Positions 9,496 through 46,990 of a stretch of DNA of 64,000 bases are shown piece after piece. This stretch comes from a virus. Taxonomy: Duplodnaviria > Caudoviricetes. The stretch is taken from the IMG/VR virus record IMGVR_UViG_3300021426_000068, positions 68,808-132,807 of that record; one strand, given 5' to 3'. Both the position numbers and the translations under genes were made by a program. The notes beneath the pieces were generated by a model. The model saw nothing but the letters and a program-made list of their open reading frames with translations. It made no database searches and was not told where the DNA came from. Each line of letters begins with the position of its first letter. Positions within the stretch are counted from its first letter, which is position 1.

Positions 9496-9526
9496 AAAAA
9501 CTCGTAGGTAATTCCTACGAGTTTTT
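9496..9526. terminator. Bidirectional intrinsic terminator
   Basis: AAAAACTCGTAGG-taatt-CCTACGAGTTTTT between convergent genes. Confidence 0.8.
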
Positions 9527-12780: not shown

Positions 12781-13521
12781 TTATGATGCTAATTCAGGAT
12801 AATTTCTTATTATTTTATTTCTAATACTTTTAACTTTTTGTTCATAATTTTTATCTTGTGCGTATCTATGTCCATTCATATTAATAAACCCATTTGGCTG
12901 TAATAAAGTATCAATATCTTTATTTTTAAGATAATCACGTTTCATTAAATTAATATATGGTAAAATACTTTGATTTTGATTAGAATAAGTAGAACGATTA
13001 GAACCATCATCCCAACATCCTATTGAAAATACACTACCTGTTTTTCTTGCTCTTTTTCCAAATCCAAAACAACTTTCAAGATGTGCTTGTGCCATTAAAA
13101 GAGGTAAATCAAAACCAGTTTGTTCACATGCGTTAACCATTTCTTCGGGTGATAATTGTATATTTTCTGGGTTGAAACCTTGGTTTTTAACAGCCTTCTT
13201 CATATAGTCTTTAACACATTCAACTTTTTTTTGAAATAAACTATCAGATTGATTGTTTATATTTTCAGTATTATTTTGTAATTCAGTTTGTGCCATTCTA
13301 TATAATATGTTTTTTTGTTTTGGACTAATATTAAGATTACTAATAGAAGCAAGTATGACTGTTGAAGCCACACCTGCTACTATTGCTTGTTTATATTTTT
13401 GCCATAAAGCATTTAAATCAATAGATTCATTTATTTCACCAAATTCGTTAATATAACTTTCAAGTAAATAATAATCCTCTATATTCTTTAATTGCTGTTC
13501 AGTTAAAATTAATTTAGTCAT
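12781..13521 (-). CDS. Virion-associated peptidoglycan hydrolase, glucosaminidase (GH73-like), with N-terminal tag
   Basis: LMAQAHLESCFG and YAQDKNY motifs; start MTKLILTEQQLKNIE. Confidence 0.7.
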   Translation of the reverse strand: MTKLILTEQQLKNIEDYYLLESYINEFGEINESIDLNALWQKYKQAIVAGVASTVILASISNLNISPKQKNILYRMAQTELQNNTENINNQSDSLFQKKVECVKDYMKKAVKNQGFNPENIQLSPEEMVNACEQTGFDLPLLMAQAHLESCFGFGKRARKTGSVFSIGCWDDGSNRSTYSNQNQSILPYINLMKRDYLKNKDIDTLLQPNGFINMNGHRYAQDKNYEQKVKSIRNKIIRNYPELAS

Positions 13522-28966: not shown

Positions 28967-29776
28967 TTAATTTTTCCAACCTTGTTTTTTGTATTTATCT
29001 TGTTTTATCTTTATAACTACTCTTCCAATTTTTCTAATAAACTGATTAATTTTTTGATTAACTTTATTAATAGTTAAATTATATTTTTTTAATTCATTTA
29101 TAAATTCAATATTATCAAAATATTGATTATATATATTTATCATATCTTCATATAACTTCCATGCTGAAGAATTTTTTAAAGAAGTCATTGAAAAAAATTC
29201 TGGTAAAGACATTAAATAAGCATATAAACCATTAACAAAACCATCTTGCTCTGACTTTATACATCCATATACTAATCTTGCAGTTTTGTTTACAAGTTCA
29301 TTTTCTGAACACATATTTGTTTTTATTTTGGCATATGTTATTGAATCAGAAAACGGTTTTTTCATTATAACTTGTTGATAAATATGTTCTAATTCATGTT
29401 GTATGCTATCAAATGTTTCATTTTTAACAATAGTTCCTGAAATACATGGAACAATAATTCCCATAAAACATGTTTTTTTTCCTAAATAAACACTCCAAGC
29501 ATCAGAACTTACGTTTGAATAATCATAATATTCCCTGTTATAATAATTATAAAATTCAAGTGAACAAGATATGTTTACATCTAATAATGAAAATCTAACA
29601 GTACACTTCTTTATTGAATAATTATCAAAATCTTCACTTTCATTACAATTTAATAAAGCATTTTCAATAATAGAAAATAATTCATTTGTTTTTTCAATAA
29701 CAAAATTAGAAATACCTAATTCTTCATTAATTAATTTATTAAATTGTTCTTCTGTTAATGTTAACCTTTTTGGCAT
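28967..29776 (-). CDS. Tagged zincin-like metallopeptidase
   Basis: IQHELEHIYQ (HExxH) plus downstream E; start MPKRLTLTEEQFNKLINEE. Confidence 0.6.
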   Translation of the reverse strand: MPKRLTLTEEQFNKLINEELGISNFVIEKTNELFSIIENALLNCNESEDFDNYSIKKCTVRFSLLDVNISCSLEFYNYYNREYYDYSNVSSDAWSVYLGKKTCFMGIIVPCISGTIVKNETFDSIQHELEHIYQQVIMKKPFSDSITYAKIKTNMCSENELVNKTARLVYGCIKSEQDGFVNGLYAYLMSLPEFFSMTSLKNSSAWKLYEDMINIYNQYFDNIEFINELKKYNLTINKVNQKINQFIRKIGRVVIKIKQDKYKKQGWKN

Positions 29777-29921: not shown

Positions 29922-30176
29922 TTAATAGTTCCAATTATCAAATTCATCGTTTCGTTGTGCTTGTTCAAGCATTGCCTGCATTGAAATAACCATACTATGA
30001 ATCTCTGACTGAAGGTAATTAGGAACTTTTTGTTCCAACTCATATAGACGGTGCATTTCTTCTTTTATAAGTTGTAGGTAGTTGCCTTCATAGTCTTCTT
30101 TCAACACTTTCTTTACACTCTCAGCAACAATTTGTCTGAGTTGTTGTTCATTTAGTTTAACTACGTTCTTTTTCAT
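29922..30176 (-). CDS. Small tagged putative internal head protein
   Basis: MKKNVVKLNEQQLRQIVAESVKKVLKE. Confidence 0.7.
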   Translation of the reverse strand: MKKNVVKLNEQQLRQIVAESVKKVLKEDYEGNYLQLIKEEMHRLYELEQKVPNYLQSEIHSMVISMQAMLEQAQRNDEFDNWNY

Positions 30177-30569
30177 ATTTTTACCTGTTTAATTTGTTTA
30201 TTATAAGGACATGAAGATGGTGGCTTAACCATTTTTACCTTTTTTGAATCCATATTGAAATCCTTTTGCATCTGCTTGTGCCATATCACCACCATATAGT
30301 GCTTTATTCGCATTTTGATAGCCTTGTTTTTGGCCAGATACCATAGCATCATCTGCATTATCAAAAACTTGTCGTTGCTTCTGGTATTCCGCATTATTTC
30401 CTGCTTGTCTTGCCGCTTGTTTTCTTGCCATAGCTCTCCCTTGAACAGCAGCCAATGCATATCTTCCTTGTGGTGTATCACCAATTTCTTTTAACACTTT
30501 CTTTACACTCTCAGCAACAATTTGTCTGAGTTGTTGTTCATTTAATTTTACTATATTCTTTTTCATATT
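30103..30569. repeat. About 77-bp near-identical direct repeat encoding the N-terminal tag (30103-30179 / 30493-30569)
   Basis: 52-bp identical core AACACTTTCTTTACACTCTCAGCAACAATTTGTCTGAGTTGTTGTTCATTTA, 390 bp apart. Confidence 0.9.
30225..30566 (-). CDS. Small tagged putative internal head protein
   Basis: MKKNIVKLNEQQLRQIVAESVKKVLKEIGDT; likely start ATG 30566. Confidence 0.7.
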   Translation of the reverse strand: MKKNIVKLNEQQLRQIVAESVKKVLKEIGDTPQGRYALAAVQGRAMARKQAARQAGNNAEYQKQRQVFDNADDAMVSGQKQGYQNANKALYGGDMAQADAKGFQYGFKKGKNG

Positions 30570-30570
30570 C

Positions 30571-32397
30571 TTAATCATTTAACCAATTATTAAATTTATT
30601 TAATTTTTCGAATAACGGATTTTTATTTTCAATTTTGTTAGATTCCACATATTGTTGTAATTTTTCACTACTATCACTAATAAAAGCACCAGGGGTTGAC
30701 GGTGAGCTTACCACATCCCAACAGACGATTTCAAAATCATCTGCAACATAAAGTACTCCCATTTTTTGTGTAACAGTTCCTAAACCACGTGAAGAAACAC
30801 CGATTTTTATATTATTAAGTAAAAGATGGGCTACTTGGTCTCCTTGACAAGATATAATACCATTTTTTCTAAATCCTTCTGATACTAAAACTTCAAGTTT
30901 ACCAACAAGTGTATGTCCTTCCCAATGAAGTTCAATAATATTTATAGCAACTCGTGATAAGTCAATTACTGACTCACTAGGATGGTTACAGTTTTTAGTC
31001 CAGTGACATTTACCATTATCCATAACATACCAAACATGATTGTCAACTTCAACACACATAACATCTCCATCATAATCAATTTCAGAAACTTTTAAAAATC
31101 TTTTATCGGTATATATTCCTTTTGTTAAAGACCTATATGTGAAATACATTGGTGAAGAGTTTTCACCTTTTATAATTCTCCCCTCAATTAATCTATCATT
31201 ATCTCTTTTCTCTTCTAATAAATTTCCAGAATAACCGATTTTTAATTGTATTTCATTTAAATCAAGAGTAAGTTGTTTTGAAGTGGAAAAAACATCATCT
31301 GATAAATATTTATTAACTCTTTTATCACCACGTACTCTACCATCACCCATAACAAACCAATCATAAAAAGTTTTAAGTATTTCCTTCGATTGTTGTTTTA
31401 ATTCAAATGGAACAAATTTGTTATAACATAAACCAAATTGAGAAACATATTTACATAATCTCATGTCATTAATAACAAATGTTTTACAACCACTTTTAGT
31501 TTTGTTAATAGTAAATTTTATTCCCCATTCTTCAAGCATTTTTTCTATTTCAACACATATGTCTTCTTTTTTCTGATGTATATTTATTTTATTACCTTTA
31601 CTTGTTTCTTTAGAATGCGAACCTTCTGATAAATAAATTCCCATAAATTTAGCAAAAATATTCATAGGAATAACTAAATCAGTAAGATATTTTTCTTTTA
31701 AATCATGTCTTATATTTTTTCCAAGTTCTTCTTCTTTCATTTTTGGTATAACCATATACTCATCATTTCTACCTTCCCATTCACCTGTTTTTGGAATATA
31801 TAAGTGTGAAAGATTATCACTTTTCATTATTTCTTGTGCAGTAACAAACTTCTTAAATTTATTATTTCTATCATATAAAGGATAACCATGTTCAGGTGTT
31901 ACAACATCATCAATGTTTCTTCCCTTAATATTAATCATTTTATCATTTCTATGATACTTAATAATATTTTTAATAGGTTTAATTTCAATTTTATTTGTTT
32001 CAGTATTTAAAGTTAGAATATTTTCACCTTCAGAAACTTCATACAAATGTTTCCATCCAGATTCTGTCAATATCATTGCTTCTGGTCTATAACATTCCCC
32101 TATTGCCATTCTATCTCTAATCATCTGTTGATATTTTTCAACTTCTCTTTTGAGAACATGTTCTGGATAAATTCTGCCATTTGCATTTTCAATACCATAT
32201 TTTTGAAACACAGCATTTACAATAAAAGGATAAGGGCAATGCCATTCACCATCCTCTAAACCTTCATTCATTTTTCTATATGATTCAAACAGTTTCTTAT
32301 TATCACCAACTTCAGAAGATATATATCCATCTGATTCAATTAATAAACCAGTACCTGTTTGTCCTTTTTTAATTTCAACTAAATTACTTTTATCCAT
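30571..32397 (-). CDS. Prohead core protease (T4 gp21-like) containing an intein
   Basis: NANGRIYP, GE|C-NHP, GVSSRGLG, WDVVSSPSTPGA; 240 aa after splicing. Confidence 0.93.
   Translation of the reverse strand: MDKSNLVEIKKGQTGTGLLIESDGYISSEVGDNKKLFESYRKMNEGLEDGEWHCPYPFIVNAVFQKYGIENANGRIYPEHVLKREVEKYQQMIRDRMAIGECYRPEAMILTESGWKHLYEVSEGENILTLNTETNKIEIKPIKNIIKYHRNDKMINIKGRNIDDVVTPEHGYPLYDRNNKFKKFVTAQEIMKSDNLSHLYIPKTGEWEGRNDEYMVIPKMKEEELGKNIRHDLKEKYLTDLVIPMNIFAKFMGIYLSEGSHSKETSKGNKINIHQKKEDICVEIEKMLEEWGIKFTINKTKSGCKTFVINDMRLCKYVSQFGLCYNKFVPFELKQQSKEILKTFYDWFVMGDGRVRGDKRVNKYLSDDVFSTSKQLTLDLNEIQLKIGYSGNLLEEKRDNDRLIEGRIIKGENSSPMYFTYRSLTKGIYTDKRFLKVSEIDYDGDVMCVEVDNHVWYVMDNGKCHWTKNCNHPSESVIDLSRVAINIIELHWEGHTLVGKLEVLVSEGFRKNGIISCQGDQVAHLLLNNIKIGVSSRGLGTVTQKMGVLYVADDFEIVCWDVVSSPSTPGAFISDSSEKLQQYVESNKIENKNPLFEKLNKFNNWLND
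30991..32094 (-). mobile_element. Intein with LAGLIDADG homing endonuclease (368 aa)
   Basis: Starts CYRPEAMILTESGW; block B VTPEH; FMGIYLSEGS and FVMGDG; ends VMCVEV..H.W...HWTKN followed by Cys+1. Confidence 0.9.
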
Positions 32398-32399
32398 GA

Positions 32400-32846
32400 T
32401 TAATTTTCATTTATAAATTTTCCCATTAATCTTTTATAACTTTCTAAAACGATTTGTTTTAAATCATTTTCTGATAATTTAATGGTAGATTCATTATATT
32501 TTTCAAGATTGTTAATATCAATCTTGTTAGATTTTCTACTATAATCAGTTTTTGCTTTATGAATTTTTTTACCTGGTCTAAAACCATCACCATAGATTTC
32601 TTTTTCAGCATCTCTATTACCCTTTCTGACAGCATTTAATGCGTTTTTTGGTGATTTATGTTTTTTATTACCATGTTCTTCATTAACAGATTCAGTTAAA
32701 ATACCAGCTTCGTTCATCATATTATATATTTTTCTAATATATGGATAGACTTTTCTAACCATTCCTCTTAATTCTGGATAAGTTTCATCCAAATCAGTAT
32801 CAAATCTAAGTGCGTCCATTGTACTTAAAAATTCTTCTACATTCAT
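32400..32846 (-). CDS. Tagged hypothetical protein
   Basis: C-terminal IKLSENDLKQIVLESYKRLM tag; basic central module. Confidence 0.65.
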   Translation of the reverse strand: MNVEEFLSTMDALRFDTDLDETYPELRGMVRKVYPYIRKIYNMMNEAGILTESVNEEHGNKKHKSPKNALNAVRKGNRDAEKEIYGDGFRPGKKIHKAKTDYSRKSNKIDINNLEKYNESTIKLSENDLKQIVLESYKRLMGKFINEN

Positions 32847-32869: not shown

Positions 32870-33145
32870 TTATTTATTTAAAATACGTTTAATACTTTCT
32901 ACAACCATTTTTCTTAAGTCATTTTCTGTTATTTTAACACATTCATTATAATAACCTTTTAATGGGTGAAAATTATTTGATTTTTCTTCAACATTTCTAT
33001 TTAATTTTTCAGCATAATTAAATGCATAATCCATATTATTTGTTACCTTAACAATTTGGTCTTTATCATAACCACCATCTATAAATTCTGATTCTGGTAA
33101 AACATTGTATATTTCACCATCGTCAACAACATACCATTTTTCCAT
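32870..33145 (-). CDS. Tagged hypothetical protein
   Basis: C-terminal VKITENDLRKMVVESIKRILNK; late motif at 33163-33173. Confidence 0.65.
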   Translation of the reverse strand: MEKWYVVDDGEIYNVLPESEFIDGGYDKDQIVKVTNNMDYAFNYAEKLNRNVEEKSNNFHPLKGYYNECVKITENDLRKMVVESIKRILNK

Positions 33146-33181: not shown

Positions 33182-34366
33182 TTAAAGTTCTTCTGGATGA
33201 ATATATTCATCAGTTATAATATCTTTATCAGTATTAAGTTTTGACATTTTATCAGAAAATTTATTATATTCTTTTTCGTGTTTTGCTTTTTCAATAAGTT
33301 TTGAAATTAATCTTTTACCTGTTGCTGTTTTAGCTAAAACTTCTGACATTATTTTATTGAAATTTTTACAAGAAAGAGAAGACAATATTTTATATAGATA
33401 AGGAACGGTTTTAAAATCAATTCCTTCAAAATTTTCACTAAATATTGTCCATAATGATGGTCCAATACGCATATCCCAAGGTTCTGCTTTTAGATAGTCT
33501 GATTTACTTAAAACAATATCTAATAAATTTTTGTCTTTTGGTAAACCATGCGAAGCAAAAAGTTCCATAAATCCACGAACACATTCAGATAATAAAACAG
33601 GAAATATTTCACCTTGTGCTATTATTTTAACTTTTTCATCCTCATTACCCAAGATTACTTCAACAGTACCAATTTGCATTTTATTATCTTCAGACATACC
33701 AAGATTTTCTCTTGTAAGTAAAAGATAATTATTTAACGCAATTATTTTTCTATATAAATCAGATAACTTTGGATTAATGTCATATATTTCTGATAAATAC
33801 GATTTAATATTAGAAGAAACTTGTATTCCTGCTCCCATTGAAAGAACGTTTAACATTCTTCGTTTATTAACTTCAGATTTTATAGTTTCAATTTGTTCTA
33901 AATTATCATATTCAAAATCATTTTCATCTTGAACAGGGTCAAGTTTAATTATTTGTGTATCTAAATCAACATCATCAACCAATCTAAAATCAATTGTTAC
34001 GGTATCATCTGGTATATCAAATAAATCAACTAAATAATTATAACATAATTTTTCCAATTCATTTCTGTATGGTTTTTCAAGTTCTTGACACTTCAAAATA
34101 AGTTTATTTAAAACAGTAGGAATATCATTATCAGGAACATCATTTATTTCACCAATTTTTTTGAGTTCTTCGACTACTTCTTTAAATCTTTTATTTAATA
34201 CTTTTTCAAGATAACTGTCTTCAAAAACATTAGGTATGGCAGGATTATTTCTTAAAGATGTATTTCCTTTATAAATTGCATTAGTAATATCTTCTGGAAG
34301 TTTATCTAAAAGAATATTTTCTGTTAATACTTTTTTTTGTTCTTCTGTTATATAAATTGTTTTCAT
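33182..34366 (-). CDS. Tagged hypothetical head-associated protein
   Basis: Start MKTIYITEEQKKVLTE; late motif at 34387-34397. Confidence 0.7.
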   Translation of the reverse strand: MKTIYITEEQKKVLTENILLDKLPEDITNAIYKGNTSLRNNPAIPNVFEDSYLEKVLNKRFKEVVEELKKIGEINDVPDNDIPTVLNKLILKCQELEKPYRNELEKLCYNYLVDLFDIPDDTVTIDFRLVDDVDLDTQIIKLDPVQDENDFEYDNLEQIETIKSEVNKRRMLNVLSMGAGIQVSSNIKSYLSEIYDINPKLSDLYRKIIALNNYLLLTRENLGMSEDNKMQIGTVEVILGNEDEKVKIIAQGEIFPVLLSECVRGFMELFASHGLPKDKNLLDIVLSKSDYLKAEPWDMRIGPSLWTIFSENFEGIDFKTVPYLYKILSSLSCKNFNKIMSEVLAKTATGKRLISKLIEKAKHEKEYNKFSDKMSKLNTDKDIITDEYIHPEEL

Positions 34367-35149: not shown

Positions 35150-35674
35150 TTAATTAAGTTTTGGATTACTGAAAGGTGAATTATTATTTTTTGTTTTTTT
35201 CTTTTTCTCTAAAGTATTAGTTTTCTTTTCTTCTTCTGAATCAGTTATATTAAAACTTTCATTTATTTTATCAAGTTGTTTTTTAGTGAAAACTACTGAT
35301 TCCATTTGTGGTGTTGGTTCTTCCATATCTGGTTCTTCACTTTCTTCACCAATTCCAGCATCACTATCATCAAGAATAGAATCTAACATACCTTCTACCC
35401 ATTTTTGTAAATCTGCTTTATCTTGTCCCTGATAGTTTCTGAAATCAGCGCATGCTTTTCCAATATTTTTTTGAATTTCTTTTCTTGAACGGTCAATATT
35501 TCCTGCATCTTCATTTCCCATATTCATATCCATGTTCATGTCAACATCATTATCCATATCAGAATTATTCATATCTGGTACTTGTTCATCACCATTCATT
35601 GTATTATCTAAATTATCCTGTGGCATTTGTGGTGCTGAATTTATGTCAGGAGAAACAACAGAAGCATCACCCAT
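35150..35674 (-). CDS. Acidic protein; probably the -1 frameshift extension of the upstream gene
   Basis: Frame is open back to the A9 run at 35761-35769. Confidence 0.6.
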   Translation of the reverse strand: MGDASVVSPDINSAPQMPQDNLDNTMNGDEQVPDMNNSDMDNDVDMNMDMNMGNEDAGNIDRSRKEIQKNIGKACADFRNYQGQDKADLQKWVEGMLDSILDDSDAGIGEESEEPDMEEPTPQMESVVFTKKQLDKINESFNITDSEEEKKTNTLEKKKKTKNNNSPFSNPKLN

Positions 35675-35751: not shown

Positions 35752-37416
35752 TTACTCCGCTTTTTTTTTATTATCTAAAGTAACACCGTGTTTTAATTGG
35801 TACATAACATCCTTAGTGACATTATTCACTAATTGATTGAAAGGTGAACTGTCACCAATTTGTTTACCAAATGGTTCTTCTGAGTGAACACTTTCATCAT
35901 TCCAGTCTTCACCATGTTCGTTTTTATCTTCACCTGTTGGTGGAAGTTCAATAGGTTTCTTTCTATAACCAGGGTGTTTACCAAATACATGAAGTTCATC
36001 TTCATTAATATTACCTTTTAATGATTTAACAACAGACTCAACAATTGAATTCATGAAGTTTCTTTTACTTTCATACATATCATCGTTTAAATCTTCGTCC
36101 TCGTCATAAGACTCTAAACCTTCGTCAAAGTCAGTATCTTCTGTGTCAAAATCACTTTCATCTGATAAAGTATCATCACCTAAATCAGATGTTTCGTCAC
36201 CACCTTCAATATCATTAAGAAGTCCTTGCAATCTTTCAATTTCACTTCTAAGATATTCTGGGTCAGTTTCGTCACCTAAATCAACGTCTTCATCACCTTC
36301 GTATGATAATGTGTCATCGTCTAAATCAATGTCTTCGTTATCTTCTAAATCAGTATCCACATCTATGTCAATATCTTCTTCACCTTCAACTGAATCATCA
36401 TCCAAATCAACGTCTTTATCACCATCTACTGAGTCAGTATCAGAATCAACATCAGTATCAATATCGTCATCGAAATCAAAATCATCATCAGAATCAGAGT
36501 TAACGTCTTCGTCACCTTCAACATCAACGTCTAAATTGTCTTCAGAACTTTCATTAACGGTTTTATTAAATGGGTCGTTATTGTGGTCAGTATCTGCTTC
36601 ACCAATACCAGCTGATGCAGGAAGTCCTTTATCCCATTCTTTTTCGCCTTCTTCATTTACTGATTTATTAAATGGGTCATTGTTGTGGCCAGTATCTGCT
36701 TTACCATCAGCGGTTGAACCAAAACCTTTAAGTCCTGCATCAAAATCAGTATCACATGAACCACCTTCACATGATTCATTCATATCTTTTCCTTTTCCTG
36801 GATTTTCTTTAAATGGTTCTGCTTTTTTATCAAGACCAACATGACTTCCTTTATAATCAGGTTGTGCTTTTGCTTCTTTACTACCTTCTGGTTTATCACC
36901 TTTAGCACCTGTTTCAGCTTCAGGTTGAGAAGTTGTACATGCTTTACCACCTTTAACAGCATAATCAGTTGATTCATTCATAATCATACTTGCATTATAC
37001 ATAATCTGACGTTGACGAGCAATTTCTGCTTTCATTTTATCAGTTGCTTCAGCAAGCACAATTTCTTTCTTGAATGGGTCAAGAGTTGTTACATCAACTT
37101 TAGCATCATGTGCTTCGTTGATAGAAGAAAGTTTAAGTTCAAGATGCTTAAGTGCATTTGCATAACTATCATATCTGTAGTTATTTTTATTCATATAACC
37201 ACCGATATAATCATAACCTTCTGCAAGTTTTTCTTTACCATCAGCAGCTTGTTTAATATAGAAATGATTACATTCTTTTACAATACCATATGTTTTACCA
37301 TCTGCTGCTTTTGCGGAATATTCCAATGTGCTGTTACTCTGTTTCTTATTTTCATTTACTGTTCCATAAGTATAGAGTGCTTTCATACGAGCAATTGAAT
37401 CTTCAAAATTATTCAT
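35752..37416 (-). CDS. Acidic prohead core/scaffold-like protein
   Basis: Asp/Glu-rich, internal repeats ADT.HNNDPFNK.VNE, ends KKKAE on an A9 run. Confidence 0.7.
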   Translation of the reverse strand: MNNFEDSIARMKALYTYGTVNENKKQSNSTLEYSAKAADGKTYGIVKECNHFYIKQAADGKEKLAEGYDYIGGYMNKNNYRYDSYANALKHLELKLSSINEAHDAKVDVTTLDPFKKEIVLAEATDKMKAEIARQRQIMYNASMIMNESTDYAVKGGKACTTSQPEAETGAKGDKPEGSKEAKAQPDYKGSHVGLDKKAEPFKENPGKGKDMNESCEGGSCDTDFDAGLKGFGSTADGKADTGHNNDPFNKSVNEEGEKEWDKGLPASAGIGEADTDHNNDPFNKTVNESSEDNLDVDVEGDEDVNSDSDDDFDFDDDIDTDVDSDTDSVDGDKDVDLDDDSVEGEEDIDIDVDTDLEDNEDIDLDDDTLSYEGDEDVDLGDETDPEYLRSEIERLQGLLNDIEGGDETSDLGDDTLSDESDFDTEDTDFDEGLESYDEDEDLNDDMYESKRNFMNSIVESVVKSLKGNINEDELHVFGKHPGYRKKPIELPPTGEDKNEHGEDWNDESVHSEEPFGKQIGDSSPFNQLVNNVTKDVMYQLKHGVTLDNKKKAE

Positions 37417-37481
37417 TGTGTTATGTTTTTTATTTTGTTATTTTCATTTATTTTCTTATAAATATTTTCAAAAATTAAAAA

Positions 37482-40400
37482 CTACAACATACTATTTAAT
37501 TTATCATATGTTTTTGTCTTTAAATTATACAATTTATCTAAAAATTTATTTCTGCGAAGACACTTGAATATAACATTCTCATTGTTAACTTCTTTTCCAC
37601 CACTTTTTTCAAAACCAATTTTTCTACTATTTTTTATTTCATCCCAAAGTGCATTTGCTTTTTCATAAACTTTGTTAAGTTTATATTCATCATTTTTAGA
37701 TTTTTTGTAAAGATAAACCAATTTATCAATTTTATCCGTATATTCAGATACTTTATCTTTAATATAAGATTTATTAACTTTTGAAGTTGCTAAAACATCT
37801 CTATCAGGTTCTCTTAACCATTTATCTCTATCAAGCGAATAGACACCTGAAGAATCGTGTTTTTCATTAATATCTTGAACATAGACTTCAATTGGAAAAC
37901 CAAATATTTTTAAATCTTTATGCTCATTATTCCAAGCAGTTTTTTGCGCCATAAAATATTGTTTTACAAATTCAACGTTTTCATCAACATCAGAATAATC
38001 TAATAAAACATGTAAATCAATGTCAGAATATTTTTCATTCCAATTGTAGTTTGCTAAAGAACCTGTCATAATAATATCCTTAACAATATTAGGGTCAATA
38101 CCTAAATATTCGATAAAATCATCAGAGATATCAAGAAGTTTTAATCTAATTCTGGAATCAAGATGTTCATCAACCCAAAATTTAGGATTAAGTTTTTTCT
38201 TAATACTAAATGAAGATAAATCAACTTCTTCAGGTGCAATTTCAACTTCAATGTTTTCATTAACACTTTTACCAAAATATTTTGTATCATATAATTTTAT
38301 TGCAGAAGGAGGGATATTACCTGTGTAGCAAATAGAGCCTTTTAGTGCTAAATCTTTAGTTGGGTCTAAATAAAAACAATTTTTGTCAAGTTGTTTTGTA
38401 TCTATTTCATATATATCCATTGTATCTAAATAAAAATTATCCGACCATGTTGTTGGTTTAGTACTTAAAAAAACTAAATATTCAAGTTCGTCATCATCTG
38501 GTATTTCTCCATTTGGACCTTCATAACTCCACCAGTCACGATACTCATCACCGACTGAAGCATAAATACCATTTTTTAATATACTTTCACGATTTTTTTT
38601 ATACGAAGCATGATAAAGTACAGGTGGAACAATTTTTAAACGTTTTAATGGTTCTAACTTTTCATTATCACCGTTCCATTTATCTTCAACTTCAATATTT
38701 TCATTGATTTCTTTTGGTTTGATATAAGGAAATGCCTCTTCTGCATTAACACCAAGTAGTTCGCTAAGTTGTTTTTCATTAAGAAAATCACCATCTAAAC
38801 AATTAGGAATATTATATCTTGAATAACAACTTGAAATTCCCCAATTACTTACTAACACAACAAATCTACTCAATCCATATAAATCATATGGTGTGCCACC
38901 ATGTTTATAACTTCCAAGTTCAGAATCATCCATATATTCTATTGAATCAAAAATTTCATCCCATTTTTCTTTGTTCTGTTCATAATCAATATCAAATTTC
39001 TCAATCATTTGTTCGTTCTGAACAAGATAAACGGTTTCTTCAGATATAATTTCATCCCAAGTGGATTCATCATGTGAAATGCACCATTCGCCATCACATA
39101 GTAAATCCATTTCTTCAAATGAATCAACATGTGTGATAGTGTAACCATTTCCTACTTTTCTTGTTTTTTCTACATAATTTATTTTAGGTGACAATGAAAC
39201 ATCAAGATTAGTAAAATTAATTAACTCTTCTATTGATAAGTTATTTAAATTGTTATCTAAATGTTGTCCAATATTGTACCAATTATGGTTTATTGTATAT
39301 AATACTTTGTTAAGTATAGTATATTCATTTCTTGGTATTTTATCTTCAAAAAGTAATCTAAATACACCAAGTAAATATCTTCCAGAAAAGATTCGTGCAT
39401 AAGGAATAACCTTATATACTTCCATAACTTTATTTCTTATATCCTGAAAATTAGTTAAACCAAATTTTTGTTTAATATAATTGTTTATTTTTCTATCATT
39501 AGAATTTTCGTTTAACTTATTTTCATTAACACTATTAGAAATATAATCACAAGAATGTTTTCCACCTTCAATAAAAGCAGAAGATAAATCACCTCTTTGG
39601 TGAACAACGTCAAGACACCTATTAATTAAAATTAATATTTCACCTGCTTCCATATTAGGATTATATAAGTTGATAATATCAAATAAAGGTTTAAGTCCAT
39701 AATCACTCCATGCATCAGAACCATCAGGAAGCACACACCAATCGTAAAAACCAATGGAATCTAAATATTCACATCCATCACCATAGCCTTCAATATCTAC
39801 ACCAAAATAATCACTAACATCTTCTGAAGGAAAATATCCAGAATGTCCAGCAAAATCAGTAATATTATTAATATCTATTGCATTAGGAACAATTATATTA
39901 AGAAACCAATTATTAACAACATTATATGGTATTCTAGCCATTATAGGTGACTCCATATAACGTTTTAACAATGTATGATATTGTTGTGCTGGAATTAGAT
40001 TCCATTGTTTTTGCTTAATTCCATGTTTTTTATCAAGACTAAAATCATTTAATAATTCAAAATGTGTTCTTTCTTCAAAAACATCTTCTAAATCTTCAAT
40101 TGATTCATTTAATTTATTTTCTTTTAAAGTAAATGGCATTGTACCAAAATATTTACCACAATCTTTACAGATGTAAACAGGTTCACCATGAATTTGTAAG
40201 ACTACTTTTCCACCACATTTATCACATTTTTCAGGTACAATTTCTCCTTTATCATTTTTGATAACTTTCTTTCTACCTTCAAACATACCTTTAAGTTGAT
40301 TAGAGTATATTGAATAAATTTTTTGTCGTGGAATTTCGTTTCTTTGATAATTAAAATCATTCATATTGGTAAAGAAATGCATTTTTTCTCCCCAATCTGG

Positions 40401-41552
40401 ATAAGTTTCAATTCTTTTAAGAAATTTATCCCAAAGTTTTATGTTATCAACATGATTTCCTAATAAGATGTCTATTCTATTAATGTAATTTGAGGCATCA
40501 ACTATTTGGTCACTACCATCACGTAAAGTAAGTGAATCTTCTGCTTCATTTGATTCACCACCATCGGTTCTACCTCTACCTCTTTTTAAATCATCACCCC
40601 ATTCTTCTTTAAAATGTTCATAGTTTGCATAAATATAATCATAAGGAGTGATATCAACATTTCTAATATTGTTTAAAAGTCTACCGTCTAATTCAATTCT
40701 AATAAGTGGTGAAGTTTCTCTTAATCCGTAACCATAACCTTCTGCATTACTTCTCATACGTGTAAGTGACATATAATAATCACCTTTACGTCCTTCTTCA
40801 CCTTTTGAATCAGTTAAATTAAAAGTATCAGTAGCCATCATACTTATTAAATTCTGTAATGTTGTATAATGGTACTCTAAATCTACTGCTGATTCATTTA
40901 ATTTAGATTCACTTAGTTTCTGATATTTTTTAATATAAGGATTAATATAAACATCTAAAACATTTGGATATTCTTTAAACGATTTCCAAATTTTGATACC
41001 TAAATCTGGAAAATATCTAAATTGTATTTTTGATAACCTATCATCTAAAATATCAGTTTCAATAACAGCTCTATCATCCAAATGTGTATAAATACTAGTT
41101 TTAATTAATCTACAATTAAATTCATTAAATTCTATTTTATTTTCATAAATATAATCAACATTTGATAATTGGTGAACCACTGATTTAGGAAAATCAAATG
41201 CAAATGTAAATTCGTAATTATATTGTTTTTCAGAAAGCCAAACTGCTTTTGGACCACCTTCGGAACAGATACGAGGAATAAAACCACCATGAATAGTATT
41301 ATATTCTAAACCTTTTCTGTTAACACCATGATAAAGAGTAATAATTTCTTCATCGGATTCATTTATATGATAATAAGGTGAAATTTCACTATTTTCAGCA
41401 CCAAGTTTATATGTATCAGATTCAACATTTTCTCCAATACCCACAACAGCATCCATAACACCAGCGTTGACTTTACCACCAACCTGGTCTTGTGCGGCAA
41501 TTGCTTTCTTTAACTTCTTTTTTTGTTCTTCTGTTATGTATATAGTCTTCAT
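37482..41552 (-). CDS. Tagged polyvalent protein: ART-like domains, Zn ribbon, WC-motif domain and C-terminal nucleotidyltransferase
   Basis: LYHGVN; YHYT...MSLTR...EAE; CDKCG..CKDCG; WCISH...DLYGLS; LYHAS...SILKNGI; MTGSLANYNW...SDIDLH (PolB-type NTase GS..DxD). Confidence 0.75.
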   Translation of the reverse strand: MKTIYITEEQKKKLKKAIAAQDQVGGKVNAGVMDAVVGIGENVESDTYKLGAENSEISPYYHINESDEEIITLYHGVNRKGLEYNTIHGGFIPRICSEGGPKAVWLSEKQYNYEFTFAFDFPKSVVHQLSNVDYIYENKIEFNEFNCRLIKTSIYTHLDDRAVIETDILDDRLSKIQFRYFPDLGIKIWKSFKEYPNVLDVYINPYIKKYQKLSESKLNESAVDLEYHYTTLQNLISMMATDTFNLTDSKGEEGRKGDYYMSLTRMRSNAEGYGYGLRETSPLIRIELDGRLLNNIRNVDITPYDYIYANYEHFKEEWGDDLKRGRGRTDGGESNEAEDSLTLRDGSDQIVDASNYINRIDILLGNHVDNIKLWDKFLKRIETYPDWGEKMHFFTNMNDFNYQRNEIPRQKIYSIYSNQLKGMFEGRKKVIKNDKGEIVPEKCDKCGGKVVLQIHGEPVYICKDCGKYFGTMPFTLKENKLNESIEDLEDVFEERTHFELLNDFSLDKKHGIKQKQWNLIPAQQYHTLLKRYMESPIMARIPYNVVNNWFLNIIVPNAIDINNITDFAGHSGYFPSEDVSDYFGVDIEGYGDGCEYLDSIGFYDWCVLPDGSDAWSDYGLKPLFDIINLYNPNMEAGEILILINRCLDVVHQRGDLSSAFIEGGKHSCDYISNSVNENKLNENSNDRKINNYIKQKFGLTNFQDIRNKVMEVYKVIPYARIFSGRYLLGVFRLLFEDKIPRNEYTILNKVLYTINHNWYNIGQHLDNNLNNLSIEELINFTNLDVSLSPKINYVEKTRKVGNGYTITHVDSFEEMDLLCDGEWCISHDESTWDEIISEETVYLVQNEQMIEKFDIDYEQNKEKWDEIFDSIEYMDDSELGSYKHGGTPYDLYGLSRFVVLVSNWGISSCYSRYNIPNCLDGDFLNEKQLSELLGVNAEEAFPYIKPKEINENIEVEDKWNGDNEKLEPLKRLKIVPPVLYHASYKKNRESILKNGIYASVGDEYRDWWSYEGPNGEIPDDDELEYLVFLSTKPTTWSDNFYLDTMDIYEIDTKQLDKNCFYLDPTKDLALKGSICYTGNIPPSAIKLYDTKYFGKSVNENIEVEIAPEEVDLSSFSIKKKLNPKFWVDEHLDSRIRLKLLDISDDFIEYLGIDPNIVKDIIMTGSLANYNWNEKYSDIDLHVLLDYSDVDENVEFVKQYFMAQKTAWNNEHKDLKIFGFPIEVYVQDINEKHDSSGVYSLDRDKWLREPDRDVLATSKVNKSYIKDKVSEYTDKIDKLVYLYKKSKNDEYKLNKVYEKANALWDEIKNSRKIGFEKSGGKEVNNENVIFKCLRRNKFLDKLYNLKTKTYDKLNSML

Positions 41553-41592
41553 TTATAATCAATATAATAATAAATAGTTAAACTAAAAAGAA

Positions 41593-41617
41593 AAAAGCAG
41601 ACAATTTGTCTGCTTTT
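41593..41617. terminator. Intrinsic terminator
   Basis: AAAAGCAGACAA-t-TTGTCTGCTTTT. Confidence 0.75.
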
Positions 41618-41638
41618 CATTAATAATATTTGTTTATA

Positions 41639-43222
41639 TTAGTCTTTTACTACTTCAAAAACAGGAACACCATCTTCAGAGGTTTCAACAACATGATAGC
41701 CTTCTGCTACAAATGATACATGACCGCTTGGTTCACTATATGATTCTGCTGGATTATAATTGTAGAATTTACCACCATAAACATTAATTTTGGCTGTACC
41801 TTCTGTATAACTCTTATCAAGACAATTAAGCATAAACTTACAATGTCCTTTAATGTCTAACTCAGGTTCACCTAACATTTTAAATGTACCGCCATATACA
41901 TTAATTGTACCATTTTCAGCATAAAGAACATGAGTATAGGCTTCAAAGTTACCACCATTTACATTAAGAACACAATCTTTTCCTGAAACCCAAACGCCAT
42001 AACTATCAGTGTTATTAATAAGTTTTCCTTCACCGTTGATTGTTAAGTTTACACTACCTCTTAAGAAAATACTACCTGAAGATTTTGTGCCACATTTAAC
42101 TTCATGATTATTAAGGTTGTAAATATATTTACCATTTGCAATAATACCGAACACCACACCTTTATTGGTATCAATATCTTCAGCAAAGTTATAAACACCT
42201 GAATTTGAAGTTAACTTATTAAAGTTAGTATTATCAACTTCAAGTGTATAAGGATTATATTCTATCTCTTCATTAATAATTTCATCGGCAAAATCTTTAA
42301 TATCAATACCATAGAAAATAACTTTTCCTTTTAACACATTAAGTGACATTGCATGAAAACCTGCTTTAAGAATAAGTGTGTTTTCACTAACTGTTGCTGT
42401 GACATCAGTATATTTTCCACCCATAGTAACGGTTGAATTTGGTGCATATATTGTTGGACTACCCATTACTTCAGCATTACCATCATTGATAGTTAATTTA
42501 TTAGTTCCAAGATATTTAACACCACTTTTATCACCAACGAAGTTAATACTTAATGTTACATCAGTTGCTACATTATCATCAATACCTATTATACCATGTA
42601 CATCAGCATATGTTGATTGTGAAGCACTAATTGATTTACCGTTAAGGTAGATGTTGTTATATTTCCCTTTTAAATATACACTTGCACCATTATTAGAAAC
42701 AATAGAAATATCAATTGGTTCTTCACTTGTATTCTCAATTGTTAAGGATTTTGAAGAATTTGTAGTAATTGTAGCACCGTTTTGGAAATTACCTTTTACT
42801 GTTGAACTTACTGAAACTGTTTCAGGAATTGTTAAATTATTAACAGTACCTTCATCAACAGTTACCGTTGTTGTTTTTGTAGCATTTTCTAATTCATTTA
42901 TAACATTTTCTTCAATTACATTTTGTTCAGGTGTATTTTCAATTACTTCTGGTTGTACAACAGGGTCATCTGGTCCTGGTGTTGGTGGAACAGGAGGTGT
43001 TGGCGGAACAGGTTTTTCTTCACTTTTTTGTGCAATAAGAGTAGCACTAATTGTTTCCATTTGGTCAACTCCTTTTGCTGTATAGTCAAATATTGATACA
43101 ACTGGTTCATCAACTTTTCCAACAGTATATTTTTTAAGAAGTTTACTTAATTTTGGAATTAAACCACTAAAATCTGATTTTTCTTTAAAACCGTATCTAT
43201 TAAAATTGTTATTTCTCATCAC
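41639..43222 (-). CDS. Putative virion surface/decoration protein with Pro-rich linker and beta-helix-like body
   Basis: PVPPTPPVPPTPGP linker; repeated INVYGG.F; N-terminus paralogous to 43243-43449. Confidence 0.55.
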   Translation of the reverse strand: MMRNNNFNRYGFKEKSDFSGLIPKLSKLLKKYTVGKVDEPVVSIFDYTAKGVDQMETISATLIAQKSEEKPVPPTPPVPPTPGPDDPVVQPEVIENTPEQNVIEENVINELENATKTTTVTVDEGTVNNLTIPETVSVSSTVKGNFQNGATITTNSSKSLTIENTSEEPIDISIVSNNGASVYLKGKYNNIYLNGKSISASQSTYADVHGIIGIDDNVATDVTLSINFVGDKSGVKYLGTNKLTINDGNAEVMGSPTIYAPNSTVTMGGKYTDVTATVSENTLILKAGFHAMSLNVLKGKVIFYGIDIKDFADEIINEEIEYNPYTLEVDNTNFNKLTSNSGVYNFAEDIDTNKGVVFGIIANGKYIYNLNNHEVKCGTKSSGSIFLRGSVNLTINGEGKLINNTDSYGVWVSGKDCVLNVNGGNFEAYTHVLYAENGTINVYGGTFKMLGEPELDIKGHCKFMLNCLDKSYTEGTAKINVYGGKFYNYNPAESYSEPSGHVSFVAEGYHVVETSEDGVPVFEVVKD

Positions 43223-44279: not shown

Positions 44280-44287
44280 TATTTTTG
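44280..44287 (+). promoter_or_regulatory. Bacteroidota-type -7 promoter box TAnnTTTG (representative copy upstream of clpC)
   Basis: Also at 22644, 55678, 58986, 61787 (+) and about 25091 (-), some with upstream TTTG. Confidence 0.65.
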
Positions 44288-44317
44288 CAAAAAAAGAAAA
44301 GTAAAATTATATTAAAT

Positions 44318-46990
44318 ATGAGTGAAAATACTAACATGATTATTTCAGACGAAAAATTTTCAAATGAGTTAAAAGAAGTTCTTGATTATATGGTTGAAGA
44401 GATTGCTAAGGACGAACTTCCAACCGTTGTTATTAGTCCTGAATATTTTTTCTTATCAGTGTTAGAAATTGAAAATTGTGAAGCATATAAAACTTTAAAC
44501 CGTATTATTCAAGTAAATACATTAGATGCAATAGAAGCATCAATAGTTAATTTTTTATCAAGTAAAGCTTTAACTGCAATTAAACCTAATAGAGCACAAA
44601 AATATGATGATAAACTCATTAATTATTTAAAACAATCTGAAGAAGAAATGAAAAAGTTAGGTGATTCAGAGATAACAAGTGACCATGTTATGCTTGCAAT
44701 CCTTAATGATGATTCATTTGAAAATAGAATCAGAAAAATAATTAATGCAAAACGTATTGACTATACAACATATAAAGATTTAATCCAACATAAAAAAAAT
44801 GATAAAAATAAGCCTGATTTAAAAATAGATAAAACAAGTTCAGATTTACCAAACTATAAATTAATTGGAATTGATTTGAGTCAATTGCCAAACGGTGATG
44901 AAATCATGCAAAAACTTGTTTTAGGACAAATCACACCAGAAGAAATAATAAATAAATATCCTAATGCCATATCAGGAACAATGCCAACAAATCAAACAAC
45001 AAATTCAAAAAGTAAAACGCCAAATATTGATTCTTTTTGTACCAATTTAAATAATATGGTAGAAAACGGTAAAATTGACGAAATTGTAGGTAGAGAAAAA
45101 GAAACCGAAGAAATTATTAGAATTTTAGGAAGAAGAAGAAAAAACAATGCAATTCTTGTTGGTTCTGAAGGCGTTGGTAAAACAGTAATTTGTGAAAACC
45201 TTGCTTCAAAAATAGTTAAACAAGAAGTACCAGATTTCTTATTAAATAAAATCGTTATATCTCTTGATATTACGGCATTACAGGCTGGGACAACTCTTAG
45301 GGGTATGTTTGAAGAAAGAGTTAAAGGTCTTCTTAATGAAATTAGAGACAATGGTAATTATATTCTTTTCATTGACAACATCGGAAATGTACTTAATGAC
45401 AAGGGGAGAAATGATTATGATATTTCTGGTATGATTTCACATTCGTTGGAAACAGGTGAAGTTCAGGTTATTGGTACTGCTGATTATAAATCATTTAGAA
45501 AAACTTTTGACAAAGACCCTTCATTAAACAGACGTTTTCAAAAAATTGTTGTTGATGCACCTTCAGTAGAAGAATCACTTGATATAATTAATGGAATTAA
45601 GCATTATTATGAAGATTATCATCATGTTGTATATACAAACGAAGCAATAAAATCTTGTGTTGAATTATCAAACAGATATATTTCTGAAAGAAATCTTCCA
45701 GATTCAGCAATAGATGTTCTTGACGAAGCAGGCTCTATTATTGGAACTAGTGCTGATTCTATACCTGAAGTTGGTAAACTTAAAAAACAAATTAATGATA
45801 TTAAATTTGAAATAGATAAAGAAAAACAAAAAGAAAACTATAAAAGAGTTGATGAATTATCAACTATTGAAAAATCATTAAATTCACAAATAAAGGGTTT
45901 AACAGAAAAACATAAAGAAAAAAGATTAAATAATCCTGAAGTAATTGATGAATCCGTTATTCTTGAACTTATTTCAAAGAAAACTAAAATTCCAGTAAAT
46001 AAATTAACATCTGACGATAAGAAAAGATTATTAAATATTAATAACAGACTTAAAGAAGAAGTTATTGGACAAGACGAAGCAATTGATACTATTTGCCGAG
46101 CACTTAAAAGAAATAGAATTGGATTAAGTAATAACAAATGCCTTTATAGTGCACTGGCTGTAGGAAAGACAGGTGTTGGTAAAACATTGATAGCCAAAAA
46201 ATTAGCAAAAGAAATGTTTGGTACTGAAGATGCACTTATTCGTTTTGATATGTCAGAGTACCATGATAAAACGGCTGTTAATAAACTTATAGGTTCAAAT
46301 CCAGGATATGTTGGTTATGAAGAAGGTGGTTTATTAACCGAAGCAGTTAAAAACAAGAAATATTGTGTGTTGTTACTTGACGAAATTGAAAAGGCTGACC
46401 CTGAAGTTTACAATATATTCTTACAGGTACTTGATGAAGGTTTTCTTACTGATAATTCAGGTATGCATGTTGACTTCAGAAATGTAATAGTTATTTTCAC
46501 ATCGAATGTTGGTACTAAGGCAGCAAATGATTTTGGTAAAGGAATTGGATTTGGAGAAAATGATAACAGTAAAAAAATATTACTTAAAGAATTAAAGAAT
46601 AGATTTCCGCCAGAATTTATCAATAGATTAACAAATGTAATTTATTTTAATAATTTAACAGAAGATAATCTTAAAGAGATTATTAAACTTGAAATTGGTA
46701 AATTACAAAAAAGATTAAATAAAATTGGTTATGATTTAAAATATGACAAATATGTTATTGATTATATTTTAAATATAATTAAAGATGAAAAAGAATATGG
46801 TGCAAGACCAATTATGAGAGCAATTCAAGACGAAATTGAAGATAAAATAACAGATTTGTTACTTGAAAAAGATTATGAAAACGGTTATGTATTTAATGTA
46901 ACATATCCACAAAGACTTGTTACACCTTCATCTTTAATGCCAGGTATTGTTGAAGAAGAACCTATTTATGATACACTACAAACAAGTTAA
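44318..46990 (+). CDS. clpC: ClpC/ClpB-type AAA+ chaperone
   Basis: Clp-N repeats, GSEGVGKT, LPDSAIDVLDEAG, short UVR-like coil, GKTGVGKT, IGSNPGYVGYEEGG, YGARP. Confidence 0.9.
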   Translation: MSENTNMIISDEKFSNELKEVLDYMVEEIAKDELPTVVISPEYFFLSVLEIENCEAYKTLNRIIQVNTLDAIEASIVNFLSSKALTAIKPNRAQKYDDKLINYLKQSEEEMKKLGDSEITSDHVMLAILNDDSFENRIRKIINAKRIDYTTYKDLIQHKKNDKNKPDLKIDKTSSDLPNYKLIGIDLSQLPNGDEIMQKLVLGQITPEEIINKYPNAISGTMPTNQTTNSKSKTPNIDSFCTNLNNMVENGKIDEIVGREKETEEIIRILGRRRKNNAILVGSEGVGKTVICENLASKIVKQEVPDFLLNKIVISLDITALQAGTTLRGMFEERVKGLLNEIRDNGNYILFIDNIGNVLNDKGRNDYDISGMISHSLETGEVQVIGTADYKSFRKTFDKDPSLNRRFQKIVVDAPSVEESLDIINGIKHYYEDYHHVVYTNEAIKSCVELSNRYISERNLPDSAIDVLDEAGSIIGTSADSIPEVGKLKKQINDIKFEIDKEKQKENYKRVDELSTIEKSLNSQIKGLTEKHKEKRLNNPEVIDESVILELISKKTKIPVNKLTSDDKKRLLNINNRLKEEVIGQDEAIDTICRALKRNRIGLSNNKCLYSALAVGKTGVGKTLIAKKLAKEMFGTEDALIRFDMSEYHDKTAVNKLIGSNPGYVGYEEGGLLTEAVKNKKYCVLLLDEIEKADPEVYNIFLQVLDEGFLTDNSGMHVDFRNVIVIFTSNVGTKAANDFGKGIGFGENDNSKKILLKELKNRFPPEFINRLTNVIYFNNLTEDNLKEIIKLEIGKLQKRLNKIGYDLKYDKYVIDYILNIIKDEKEYGARPIMRAIQDEIEDKITDLLLEKDYENGYVFNVTYPQRLVTPSSLMPGIVEEEPIYDTLQTS

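Follow-up and report, generated by a model that had tools for sequence, protein, structure and literature searches.

A seven-module polyprotein in the head-gene cluster of a Lak-like megaphage carries prohead-protease-type motifs at its joints and is a candidate capsid cargo

INTRODUCTION

Why should a phage string seven unrelated modules on one chain, and set at each joint a short motif of the kind that the T4 head protease recognizes? The question is raised by a 1356-residue polyprotein encoded in a 64,000-nt stretch of viral DNA (positions 68,808 to 132,807 of the IMG/VR record IMGVR_UViG_3300021426_000068; Caudoviricetes). This stretch, the second half of a 132.8-kb contig (27.6% G+C), is referred to throughout as the window, and coordinates are those of the window. 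An earlier note on this DNA, made without database searches, had taken the protein for a precursor that is packaged, cut into separate enzymes during head maturation and injected into the host. The computational tests that were run came out in favour of that reading, in which packaging, cutting and injection are themselves what we infer. We consider it fairly probable that the polyprotein is a capsid cargo of a Lak-like, T4-type megaphage: it would be loaded by its leader, cut by a protease of the S77 family, kept in the head and delivered with the DNA.

The precedent is found in phage T4, where the prohead protease gp21 cuts after Glu at L/I-x-E and removes the N-terminal targeting peptides of internal proteins; it also shortens, at both ends, the packaged ADP-ribosyltransferase (ART) Alt, which is ejected into the host (PMC9026906).

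RESULTS

Anatomy of the polyprotein and its joints

Searches made here place the contig among Lak-like rumen megaphages, and CheckV puts the record at 37% complete. The open reading frame (ORF; 37482-41552, minus strand) is open across 1356 codons, as the earlier note had it, and the full-length, uncut chain has a mass of 157 kDa. A 41-residue leader and a conserved 24-residue spacer precede seven modules that are joined by disordered linkers: three ART folds, a zinc ribbon, two domains without an assigned family and a nucleotidyltransferase (NTase). As judged from the sequence and its comparison with relatives, the seven modules are independently folding units. The features run as follows from the N-terminus to the C-terminus, with arrows marking the putative cleavage points and pLDDT standing for the predicted local distance difference test score of AlphaFold2.

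41430-41552, minus strand: N-terminal leader, residues 1-41, formed by a helix (MKTIYITEEQKK; residues 8-23 in the AlphaFold2 model) and a Gly-rich stretch, and ending in IGE↓N
41358-41429, minus strand: spacer peptide of 24 residues (NVESDTYKLGAENSEISPYYHINE↓S), residues 42-65, with a site on either side; pLDDT below 50
Residues 62-66, minus strand: spacer-end site HINES
40917-41357, minus strand: M1, ART fold, residues 66-212
40890-40916, minus strand: junction LSE↓SKLNE↓S, a double site, residues 213-221; pLDDT below 50 at 214-222; breakpoint in relatives
40287-40889, minus strand: M2, second ART fold (Tpt1/DarT-like), residues 222-422
40275-40286, minus strand: junction MFE↓G, residues 423-426, preceding the basic start of the zinc ribbon
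40128-40274, minus strand: M3, C4 zinc ribbon (CDKCGG...CKDCGK), residues 427-475, with an AlphaFold2 β-hairpin at 449-462
40101-40127, minus strand: junction LKE↓NKLNE↓S, a double site, residues 476-484; pLDDT below 50 at 472-483; breakpoint in relatives
39531-40100, minus strand: M4, helical domain, residues 485-674, with the conserved motif INRCLDVxHxRGDLxSAFIEGG; pLDDT 90-98
39504-39530, minus strand: junction VNE↓NKLNE↓N, a double site, residues 675-683; pLDDT below 50; breakpoint in relatives
38709-39503, minus strand: M5, α/β domain with a conserved WC motif, residues 684-948, the Trp and Cys being kept in 35 sequences
38685-38708, minus strand: junction INE↓NIEVE, residues 949-956, adjoining a stretch with pLDDT below 50 (945-948), with surrounding blocks at 61-68; breakpoint in relatives
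38265-38684, minus strand: M6, third ART fold, the NAD-binding C-lobe of Tpt1/KptA, residues 957-1096 (967-1089 in the fold comparison)
38241-38264, minus strand: junction VNE↓NIEVE, residues 1097-1104; pLDDT below 50 at 1092-1103; start of the always-C-terminal module in 120 relatives
37485-38240, minus strand: M7, pol-β-type NTase and helical bundle, residues 1105-1356, always last

Eight junction zones thus carry a hydrophobic-x-E-[N/S/G] motif, with one or two copies per linker. The six junction motifs quoted in the earlier note all lie where it placed them, and it had missed two others of this type, IGE↓N (residues 39-42), which closes the leader, and MFE↓G (residues 423-426). The motif is concentrated in this gene: there are seven occurrences of [LIV]NE[SN] in the polyprotein, and the 160 remaining ORFs of the contig together have 17.

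The position of the motifs relative to the folded domains had been set beforehand as a test. AlphaFold2 models of residues 1-690 and 676-1356 (mean pLDDT 76.7 and 82.0, respectively) show confidently modelled domains with poorly scoring stretches between them, at 24-66, 214-222, 472-483, 676-690, 945-948 and 1092-1103, and it is in these linkers, mostly outside the folded domains, that the NE motifs are found: 9 of the 14 matches to [LIVMF].E[NSG] fall within the 11% of residues with a pLDDT below 50 (P about 3e-6).

The codons of the joints differ within the gene (AAA/AAG, AAT/AAC), and the P2 and P3 residues vary while the P3/P1 pattern is kept, which argues that the constraint at the joints is on the protein. 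Two joints share 15 identical bases of DNA (AAATTAAATGAATCA), and such short identities may additionally aid module exchange; a DNA-level recombination signal as the sole cause of the joints was rejected, given that the codons and the P2/P3 residues vary from joint to joint.

The junction rule in relatives

A search of 5.8 billion proteins returned more than 388 relatives of the polyprotein (745-2373 aa), and a search of cluster representatives gave 761 matches, including standalone versions of every module. The positions of the leader and the NTase, and the BLAST breakpoints, were scored in 120 relatives. The two ends of the chain are nearly constant, with the leader N-terminal in about 100 and the NTase C-terminal in 111 of the 120, and the middle modules are gained, lost and reordered at the joints. 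The comparison of domain order that the earlier note had suggested therefore shows reshuffling at the motif sites: breakpoints between the polyprotein and its relatives pile up at residues ~41, 62-68, 216-221, 425, 477-491, 675-680, 945-950 and 1091-1099, which are the positions of the motifs.

The motif also accompanies the joints of the relatives themselves. [LIVMF]-x-E-[NSG] is present in 79% of 356 distinct junction windows, as against 13% of random windows from the same proteins, and a looser form in 92% as against 22%. The family consensus is L>I>V>M>F at P3, N>K>S/Y/Q at P2, Glu at P1 and N>S>G at P1'. In a motif-free test on all Glu residues, a hydrophobic P3 together with N, S or G at P1' was found for 33% of those in junction windows and 8% of those elsewhere (odds ratio 5.9, with a P value that is inflated because the sequences are related).

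At 30-55% identity, P3 and P1 are kept and the residues at P2 and on the flanks change, as where INE↓S is replaced by MFE↓G, KLNE↓S by PIDE↓S and KLNE↓N by LLTE↓N. Likewise, before the sequence (K/R)KKVxKND that opens the zinc ribbon, relatives read IYE↓S, LSE↓S, IIE↓N, VIE↓G, LQE↓G or VNE↓T.

Some relatives carry further domains. A correction is due here: ART-PolyVal (PF18760) was assigned by Pfam scan to an additional module that relatives such as P0003 possess, and not to the polyprotein, a scan of which (P0001) found no ART-PolyVal, LPD or similar domain of the polyvalent class. GNAT domains also occur in relatives, and LPD38 was found in a 3883-aa protein that carries M4. A related-locus search with the whole polyprotein returned only two distant NTase loci. 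The published Lak and LR7xxxxx megaphages were rejected as direct comparators, as they carry the NTase alone, in a standalone gene outside the head cluster.

Leader, spacer and a shared N-terminal tag

The leader is a candidate capsid-targeting sequence (CTS). Its first 12 residues (MKTIYITEEQKK) are identical to the start of a 394-aa protein of the head cluster, in which the site LTE↓N follows directly:

34316-34366, minus strand: N-terminus MKTIYITEEQKKVLTE↓N of the 394-aa head-cluster protein (gene 33182-34366), with the polyprotein's tag and a site directly behind it

The two copies of the tag in this genome differ by five synonymous changes in 24 nt, which points to selection on the peptide. 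In a relative with a complete genome of 392.8 kb, the tag is present only in the polyprotein-family gene and in the gene for the 394-aa protein. Of 256 family proteins, 98 have the spacer, in a single copy and in every case between hydrophobic-x-E sites. Comparison of the leader with the CTS of T4 gave no detectable homology; its MKT start is presumably similar.

An amphipathic helix of the form h-x-h-(T/N)-E-x-(Q/D)-h-x-x-h, often running into hydrophobic-x-E↓S, occurs at the N- or C-terminus of many proteins. In the window, it is encoded by nine minus-strand genes (9515-10273, 12781-13521, 28967-29776, 29922-30176, 30225-30578, 32400-32846, 32870-33145, 33182-34366 and 37482-41552), and its carriers ('h-x-h-T-E-x-Q-h-x-x-h') include several small head-cluster proteins and many metagenomic standalone homologues of the modules. 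No Pfam family was matched by the helix-bearing proteins that were scanned. The helix is possibly a general address tag.

The head cluster: protease, capsid protein and synteny

The polyprotein gene shares its strand with the genes for a gp21-type protease and a gp23-type capsid protein.

30571-32397, minus strand: prohead protease, Peptidase_S77 (T4 gp21 family; PF03420, E 2e-18), with LAGLIDADG_3 and Intein_splicing matches
25248-27155, minus strand: major capsid protein, gp23-type, 635 aa, with MLNE↓A at residues 58-62 (26970-26984)

The protease is interrupted, just before its catalytic NHP motif, by a LAGLIDADG intein, which must splice out. The exteins align with T-even gp21: the NHP and GVSSRGLG motifs are conserved, and there is an LLIE↓S near the N-terminus. 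In relatives, the protease is intein-free in G001 (241 aa) and G003 (236 aa), and an insertion is also present in G004 (622 aa). We propose that this S77 protease is the enzyme that cuts the joints of the polyprotein.

The capsid protein provides an aligned site of the same pattern. MLNE↓A, which coincides with the T-even gp23 maturation site FLTE↓A (Glu65) and reads MLSE↓A and LLSE↓A in two related phages, is the predicted maturation site. The capsid protein is longer than that of the T-even phages (635 vs 521 aa) and aligns with it only at residues 21-110 and 391-608, which points to a large insertion (about 280 residues).

Sites with a variable P2 are also conserved near the N-termini of other proteins of the cluster: LTE↓N, LSE↓G or INE↓G in the 394-aa protein (before ILxDxLPED in relatives), and VNE↓N, VSE↓N or LNE↓G in a 554-aa protein.

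On the minus strand, the gene order is polyprotein, acidic 554-aa and 174-aa proteins, 232-aa, 394-aa and 148-aa proteins, protease, small proteins, a 546-aa scaffold-like protein and capsid protein. A gene of the polyprotein family lies 5-8 kb upstream of the S77 protease gene, on the same strand, in all five records compared (this phage and four others, one of which is the complete 392.8-kb genome). Across the five, the flanking genes are conserved, and the module content of the polyvalent gene varies.

Acidic, low-complexity proteins flank the protease region (554 aa, 35752-37416; 174 aa, 35150-35674; 546 aa, 27208-28848; all on the minus strand), and the 554-aa and 546-aa proteins have nine [LIVMF].E[NSG] matches each. 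All three have the look of scaffold or core proteins, which cutting would break into fragments.

Folds and families of the modules

Fold searches run module by module, as the earlier note had advised, recovered three ART folds and an NTase. For M1 and M2, nearly all that an unbiased search of 48,161 chains brought up were members of the ART superfamily, with Z scores of up to 8.4. M1 (residues 67-170, by VIA) matches TreTu (7zhm, Z 7.4), CC0527 (Z 7.5), the C-lobe of Tpt1 (Z 7.1) and cholera toxin (Z 5.4); M2 (residues 219-403) matches Tpt1 (7yw4, Z 8.4) and DarT (8baq, Z 7.3); and M6 superposes on KptA (9ld4) with Z 9.5 and a root mean square deviation of 2.5 over 91 aligned residues at 22% identity (Foldseek probability 1.00). 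Conserved LYHG and LYHAS strands are visible in the ART-fold modules. Since the Z values are moderate, ART membership of M1, M2 and M6 is assigned at the level of the fold only.

Tpt1 has two lobes, an RNA-binding N-terminal one with Arg-His-Arg residues and a C-terminal one that binds NAD. Only chain residues about 85-180 of Tpt1/KptA, within the C-lobe, align with M6, and the 140-aa module has no counterpart of the N-lobe; M6 is therefore Tpt1-like in fold and not a Tpt1. The earlier module labels stand for the three ART folds, the zinc ribbon, the WC motif and the NTase, and 'Tpt1-like' has to be narrowed to the NAD-binding lobe.

M7 retains an intact GS...DxD signature (TGSLANYNW...SDIDLH) and matches phrog_36119 (E 1e-36); its score against NTP_transf_2 (PF01909), 20.6 bits, is below the cut-off of 21. 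The fold matches are 2rff (Z 7.1) and AAD(9)/AadA/CdnE. By itself, M7 forms a gene that is widespread among Lak phages and found in many T4-like ones. The phrog_36119 NTase stands alone at 35-40% identity in at least 119 viral contigs (IMG/VR loci L006-L124), and is fused behind the leader and other modules in only a few rumen or gut megaphage contigs.

Pfam and PHROGs searches with the polyprotein and with standalone homologues of its modules gave no match for M1, M2, M4, M5 or M6; a sequence search of the PDB with M6 and M7 gave none; and the Pfam match of M3 to Lar_restr_allev is weak (E 0.023). M4, which has hundreds of homologues (many standalone, at about 220 aa), has no Pfam match, reached a Z of 4.7 or less in the wide fold search and found no usable match in the ESM Atlas. 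M5 likewise lacks a Pfam match and a usable ESM Atlas match; the lists from the wide fold searches, run on the half-models, were filled by the ART modules and the C-terminal helical bundle, and no listed row reached M5.

Standalone homologues are also known for M1 (P0222) and M5 (P0135 and P0246). As the earlier note had observed, two modules recur in separate genes of the window: M2 in 9515-10273 (31% identity, E 1e-13) and, more distantly, M5 in 52745-55576 (22% identity, E 9e-6). M6 has a paralogue in a separate gene of the same contig, outside the window.

Surroundings and end of the polyprotein gene

Between the upstream 527-aa gene and the polyprotein start lies a G+C-rich hairpin followed by a T run (aaaagcagacaaattgtctgctttttt; 41560-41640, minus strand); it looks like an intrinsic terminator, so that the polyprotein may start its own transcript. 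A divergent gene 3 kb from the polyprotein encodes a Lon-like ATP-dependent protease of 901 aa (44285-46990, plus strand; phrog_4871, E 2e-200).

The polyprotein ORF and its M2 paralogue (at 9515-9517) both stop at TAG, which is the stop of 14 of the 161 ORFs of the contig. If TAG were read as Gln, 23 residues would be added to the chain, IFE↓N and INE↓N among them, and the frame would overlap the following gene at an ATGA (37413-37484, minus strand). Amber read-through as a conserved feature was rejected: the relatives stop at TGA and TAA.

DISCUSSION

Based on these observations, we infer the following route. The leader would dock the whole precursor onto the scaffolding core during prohead assembly. 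The gp21-type S77 protease, its intein spliced out, would then cut after each junction Glu, as it would also cut the capsid protein at MLNE↓A and trim other proteins of the head cluster. The freed modules would remain in the head amid the packaged DNA and pass with it into the host, where the NAD-using and nucleotidyl-transferring enzymes could act before phage gene expression as host-takeover or anti-defence factors; effector function, like loading into the head, cutting and ejection, belongs to what the analysis leads us to expect.

Several points weigh against this route. Virion presence, cutting and injection are predictions for a phage that is known from an uncultured metagenomic assembly; the specificity of the protease is taken from homology and one aligned capsid site; catalysis by M1, M2 and M6 is a prediction from fold alone; and the docking role of the leader, which has no detectable homology to the T4 CTS, is a guess. 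L/I-x-E is a short and common motif: three matches (residues 137, 662 and 1191) lie inside folded modules, and 8-21% of junction windows are without it, partly through alignment offsets. The DNA identity at two joints (AAATTAAATGAATCA) could also serve recombination. Finally, P1 DarB and the N4 virion RNA polymerase, both large polyvalent proteins, are packaged without such cutting (PMC5512222).

This last point leads to the strongest of the other explanations, which we nevertheless regard as unlikely: the chain would be an uncut polyvalent protein, packaged or delivered in some other way as one 157-kDa multi-enzyme, as has been suggested for many proteins of that class, and the linker motif would be a joint with a structural or recombinational role. 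Transfer without processing is indeed described for the N4 virion RNA polymerase and for several polyvalent proteins of plasmids (PMC5512222); hallmark domains of the class occur in relatives (ART-PolyVal and GNAT) and in the protein that shares M4 (LPD38), and the 15-nt identity could guide module exchange. What the joints have in common, however, is a degenerate protein pattern (P3 L/I/V/M/F, P1 Glu and a variable P2) and not DNA, since the codons differ; it is hard to see what structural purpose a fixed hydrophobic residue two positions ahead of a Glu would serve in an otherwise polar, disordered linker; and the same pattern stands at the aligned maturation site of the capsid protein.

We think it improbable that the protein is a cytoplasmic polyprotein or multi-enzyme outside the virion, made early or late and perhaps cut by the Lon-like protease (44285-46990) or by a host protease. 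The proximity of the Lon-like gene, the terminator-like hairpin with the separate transcription unit that it might imply, and the standalone, non-head NTase of Lak and many T4-like phages would suit such a protein. They are set against a position in the head cluster, on the strand of the protease and capsid genes, that is kept in five of five records, and an N-terminal tag common only to the polyprotein and a conserved head-cluster protein; moreover, Lon has no sequence rule of this kind, and the motif fits that of S77.

Least probable of all, and in our view hardly to be expected, is a scaffold or core component whose fate, as for gp22, gp67 and gp68 of T4, would be degradation and expulsion in the course of maturation: the neighbours are acidic, site-rich and core-like (554, 174 and 546 aa), and gp21 breaks the core proteins of T4 into many pieces (PMC9026906), but the modules are well folded and enzyme-like (three ART folds and an NTase with GS...DxD intact), occur also as standalone genes and vary greatly in content among close relatives, which fits conflict-driven cargo and not a structural core.

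Read as capsid cargo, the system is a merger of polyvalent proteins with T4-style, capsid-targeted and gp21-processed cargo, and no account of such a system turned up in full-text literature searches on polyproteins that have a capsid-targeting sequence or are processed by a prohead protease. The likeness to the internal proteins IPI-III and Alt of T4 lies in the T4-type head (gp23-like capsid protein, S77 protease and an aligned L-x-E↓A site), in the order of N-terminal tag and hydrophobic-x-Glu site, and in the ART folds of the cargo. Each T4 cargo protein, however, has a small gene and a tag to itself and is cut once or twice at its ends, whereas here a single leader heads seven unrelated modules in one chain, with an internal site per joint and reshuffling between phages.

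With polyvalent proteins, among which it can broadly be counted, the chain shares its size, its many domains of conflict-type enzymes, its setting among late or structural phage genes and its mosaic architectures. Delivery with the DNA has been proposed for the class, and Iyer et al. (2017) proposed that processing, where there is any, is the work of an internal protease domain (zincin-like MPTase) (PMC5512222); the polyprotein, in contrast, has no protease domain, carries the motif of the head protease at each joint, keeps a constant leader and a constant C-terminal NTase, and has no module of its own, except the NTase, that matches a Pfam family.

A third parallel is offered by the giant phages phiKZ, 201phi2-1 and SPN3US, in which a gp21-related protease cuts many head proteins after the Glu of a three-residue motif and propeptides have redundant sites (PMC9026906). 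Double sites such as LKE↓NKLNE↓S recall this redundancy. The motif of those phages is S/A/G-x-E, compared with hydrophobic-x-E here, and the removal of propeptides is described there, in contrast to the cutting of a swappable enzyme chain at its joints.

Because one leader would address all of the cargo and generic sites would release the modules, related phages can swap, add and drop modules. A broader, plug-and-play design, which we put forward tentatively and would rate as slightly more doubtful than not, is the following: a single N-terminal address, made up of the helix and the 24-residue peptide, would load an arbitrary chain of enzymes into the prohead, the morphogenetic protease would set each of them free at a generic hydrophobic-x-Glu joint, and the cleavage site would double as a recombination seam. 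Two further parts of this design are offered with the same reserve, namely that a DNA phage would thereby have a natural polyprotein strategy that supplies a fixed-ratio set of NAD-using and nucleotidyl-transferring effectors at DNA entry and that the 'h-x-h-T-E-x-Q' helix would be the general address label of the group.

The proteins injected with a genome decide the first minutes of infection and are known from few cultured phages. If the capsid-cargo interpretation is true, huge gut and rumen phages build their injected proteins as modular polyproteins that are cut by the head protease, with cleavage sites as seams for domain shuffling, and the combination of hydrophobic-x-Glu joints with a leader becomes a rule by which cargo may be found in uncultured T4-type phages. 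Hundreds of unannotated metagenomic proteins would thereby gain a role, and among them would be new NAD-dependent and nucleotidyl-transferring enzymes as candidate counter-defence or host-takeover effectors. The leader and the joints might in addition serve for loading phage capsids with proteins of choice, a use to which the T4 CTS is already put.

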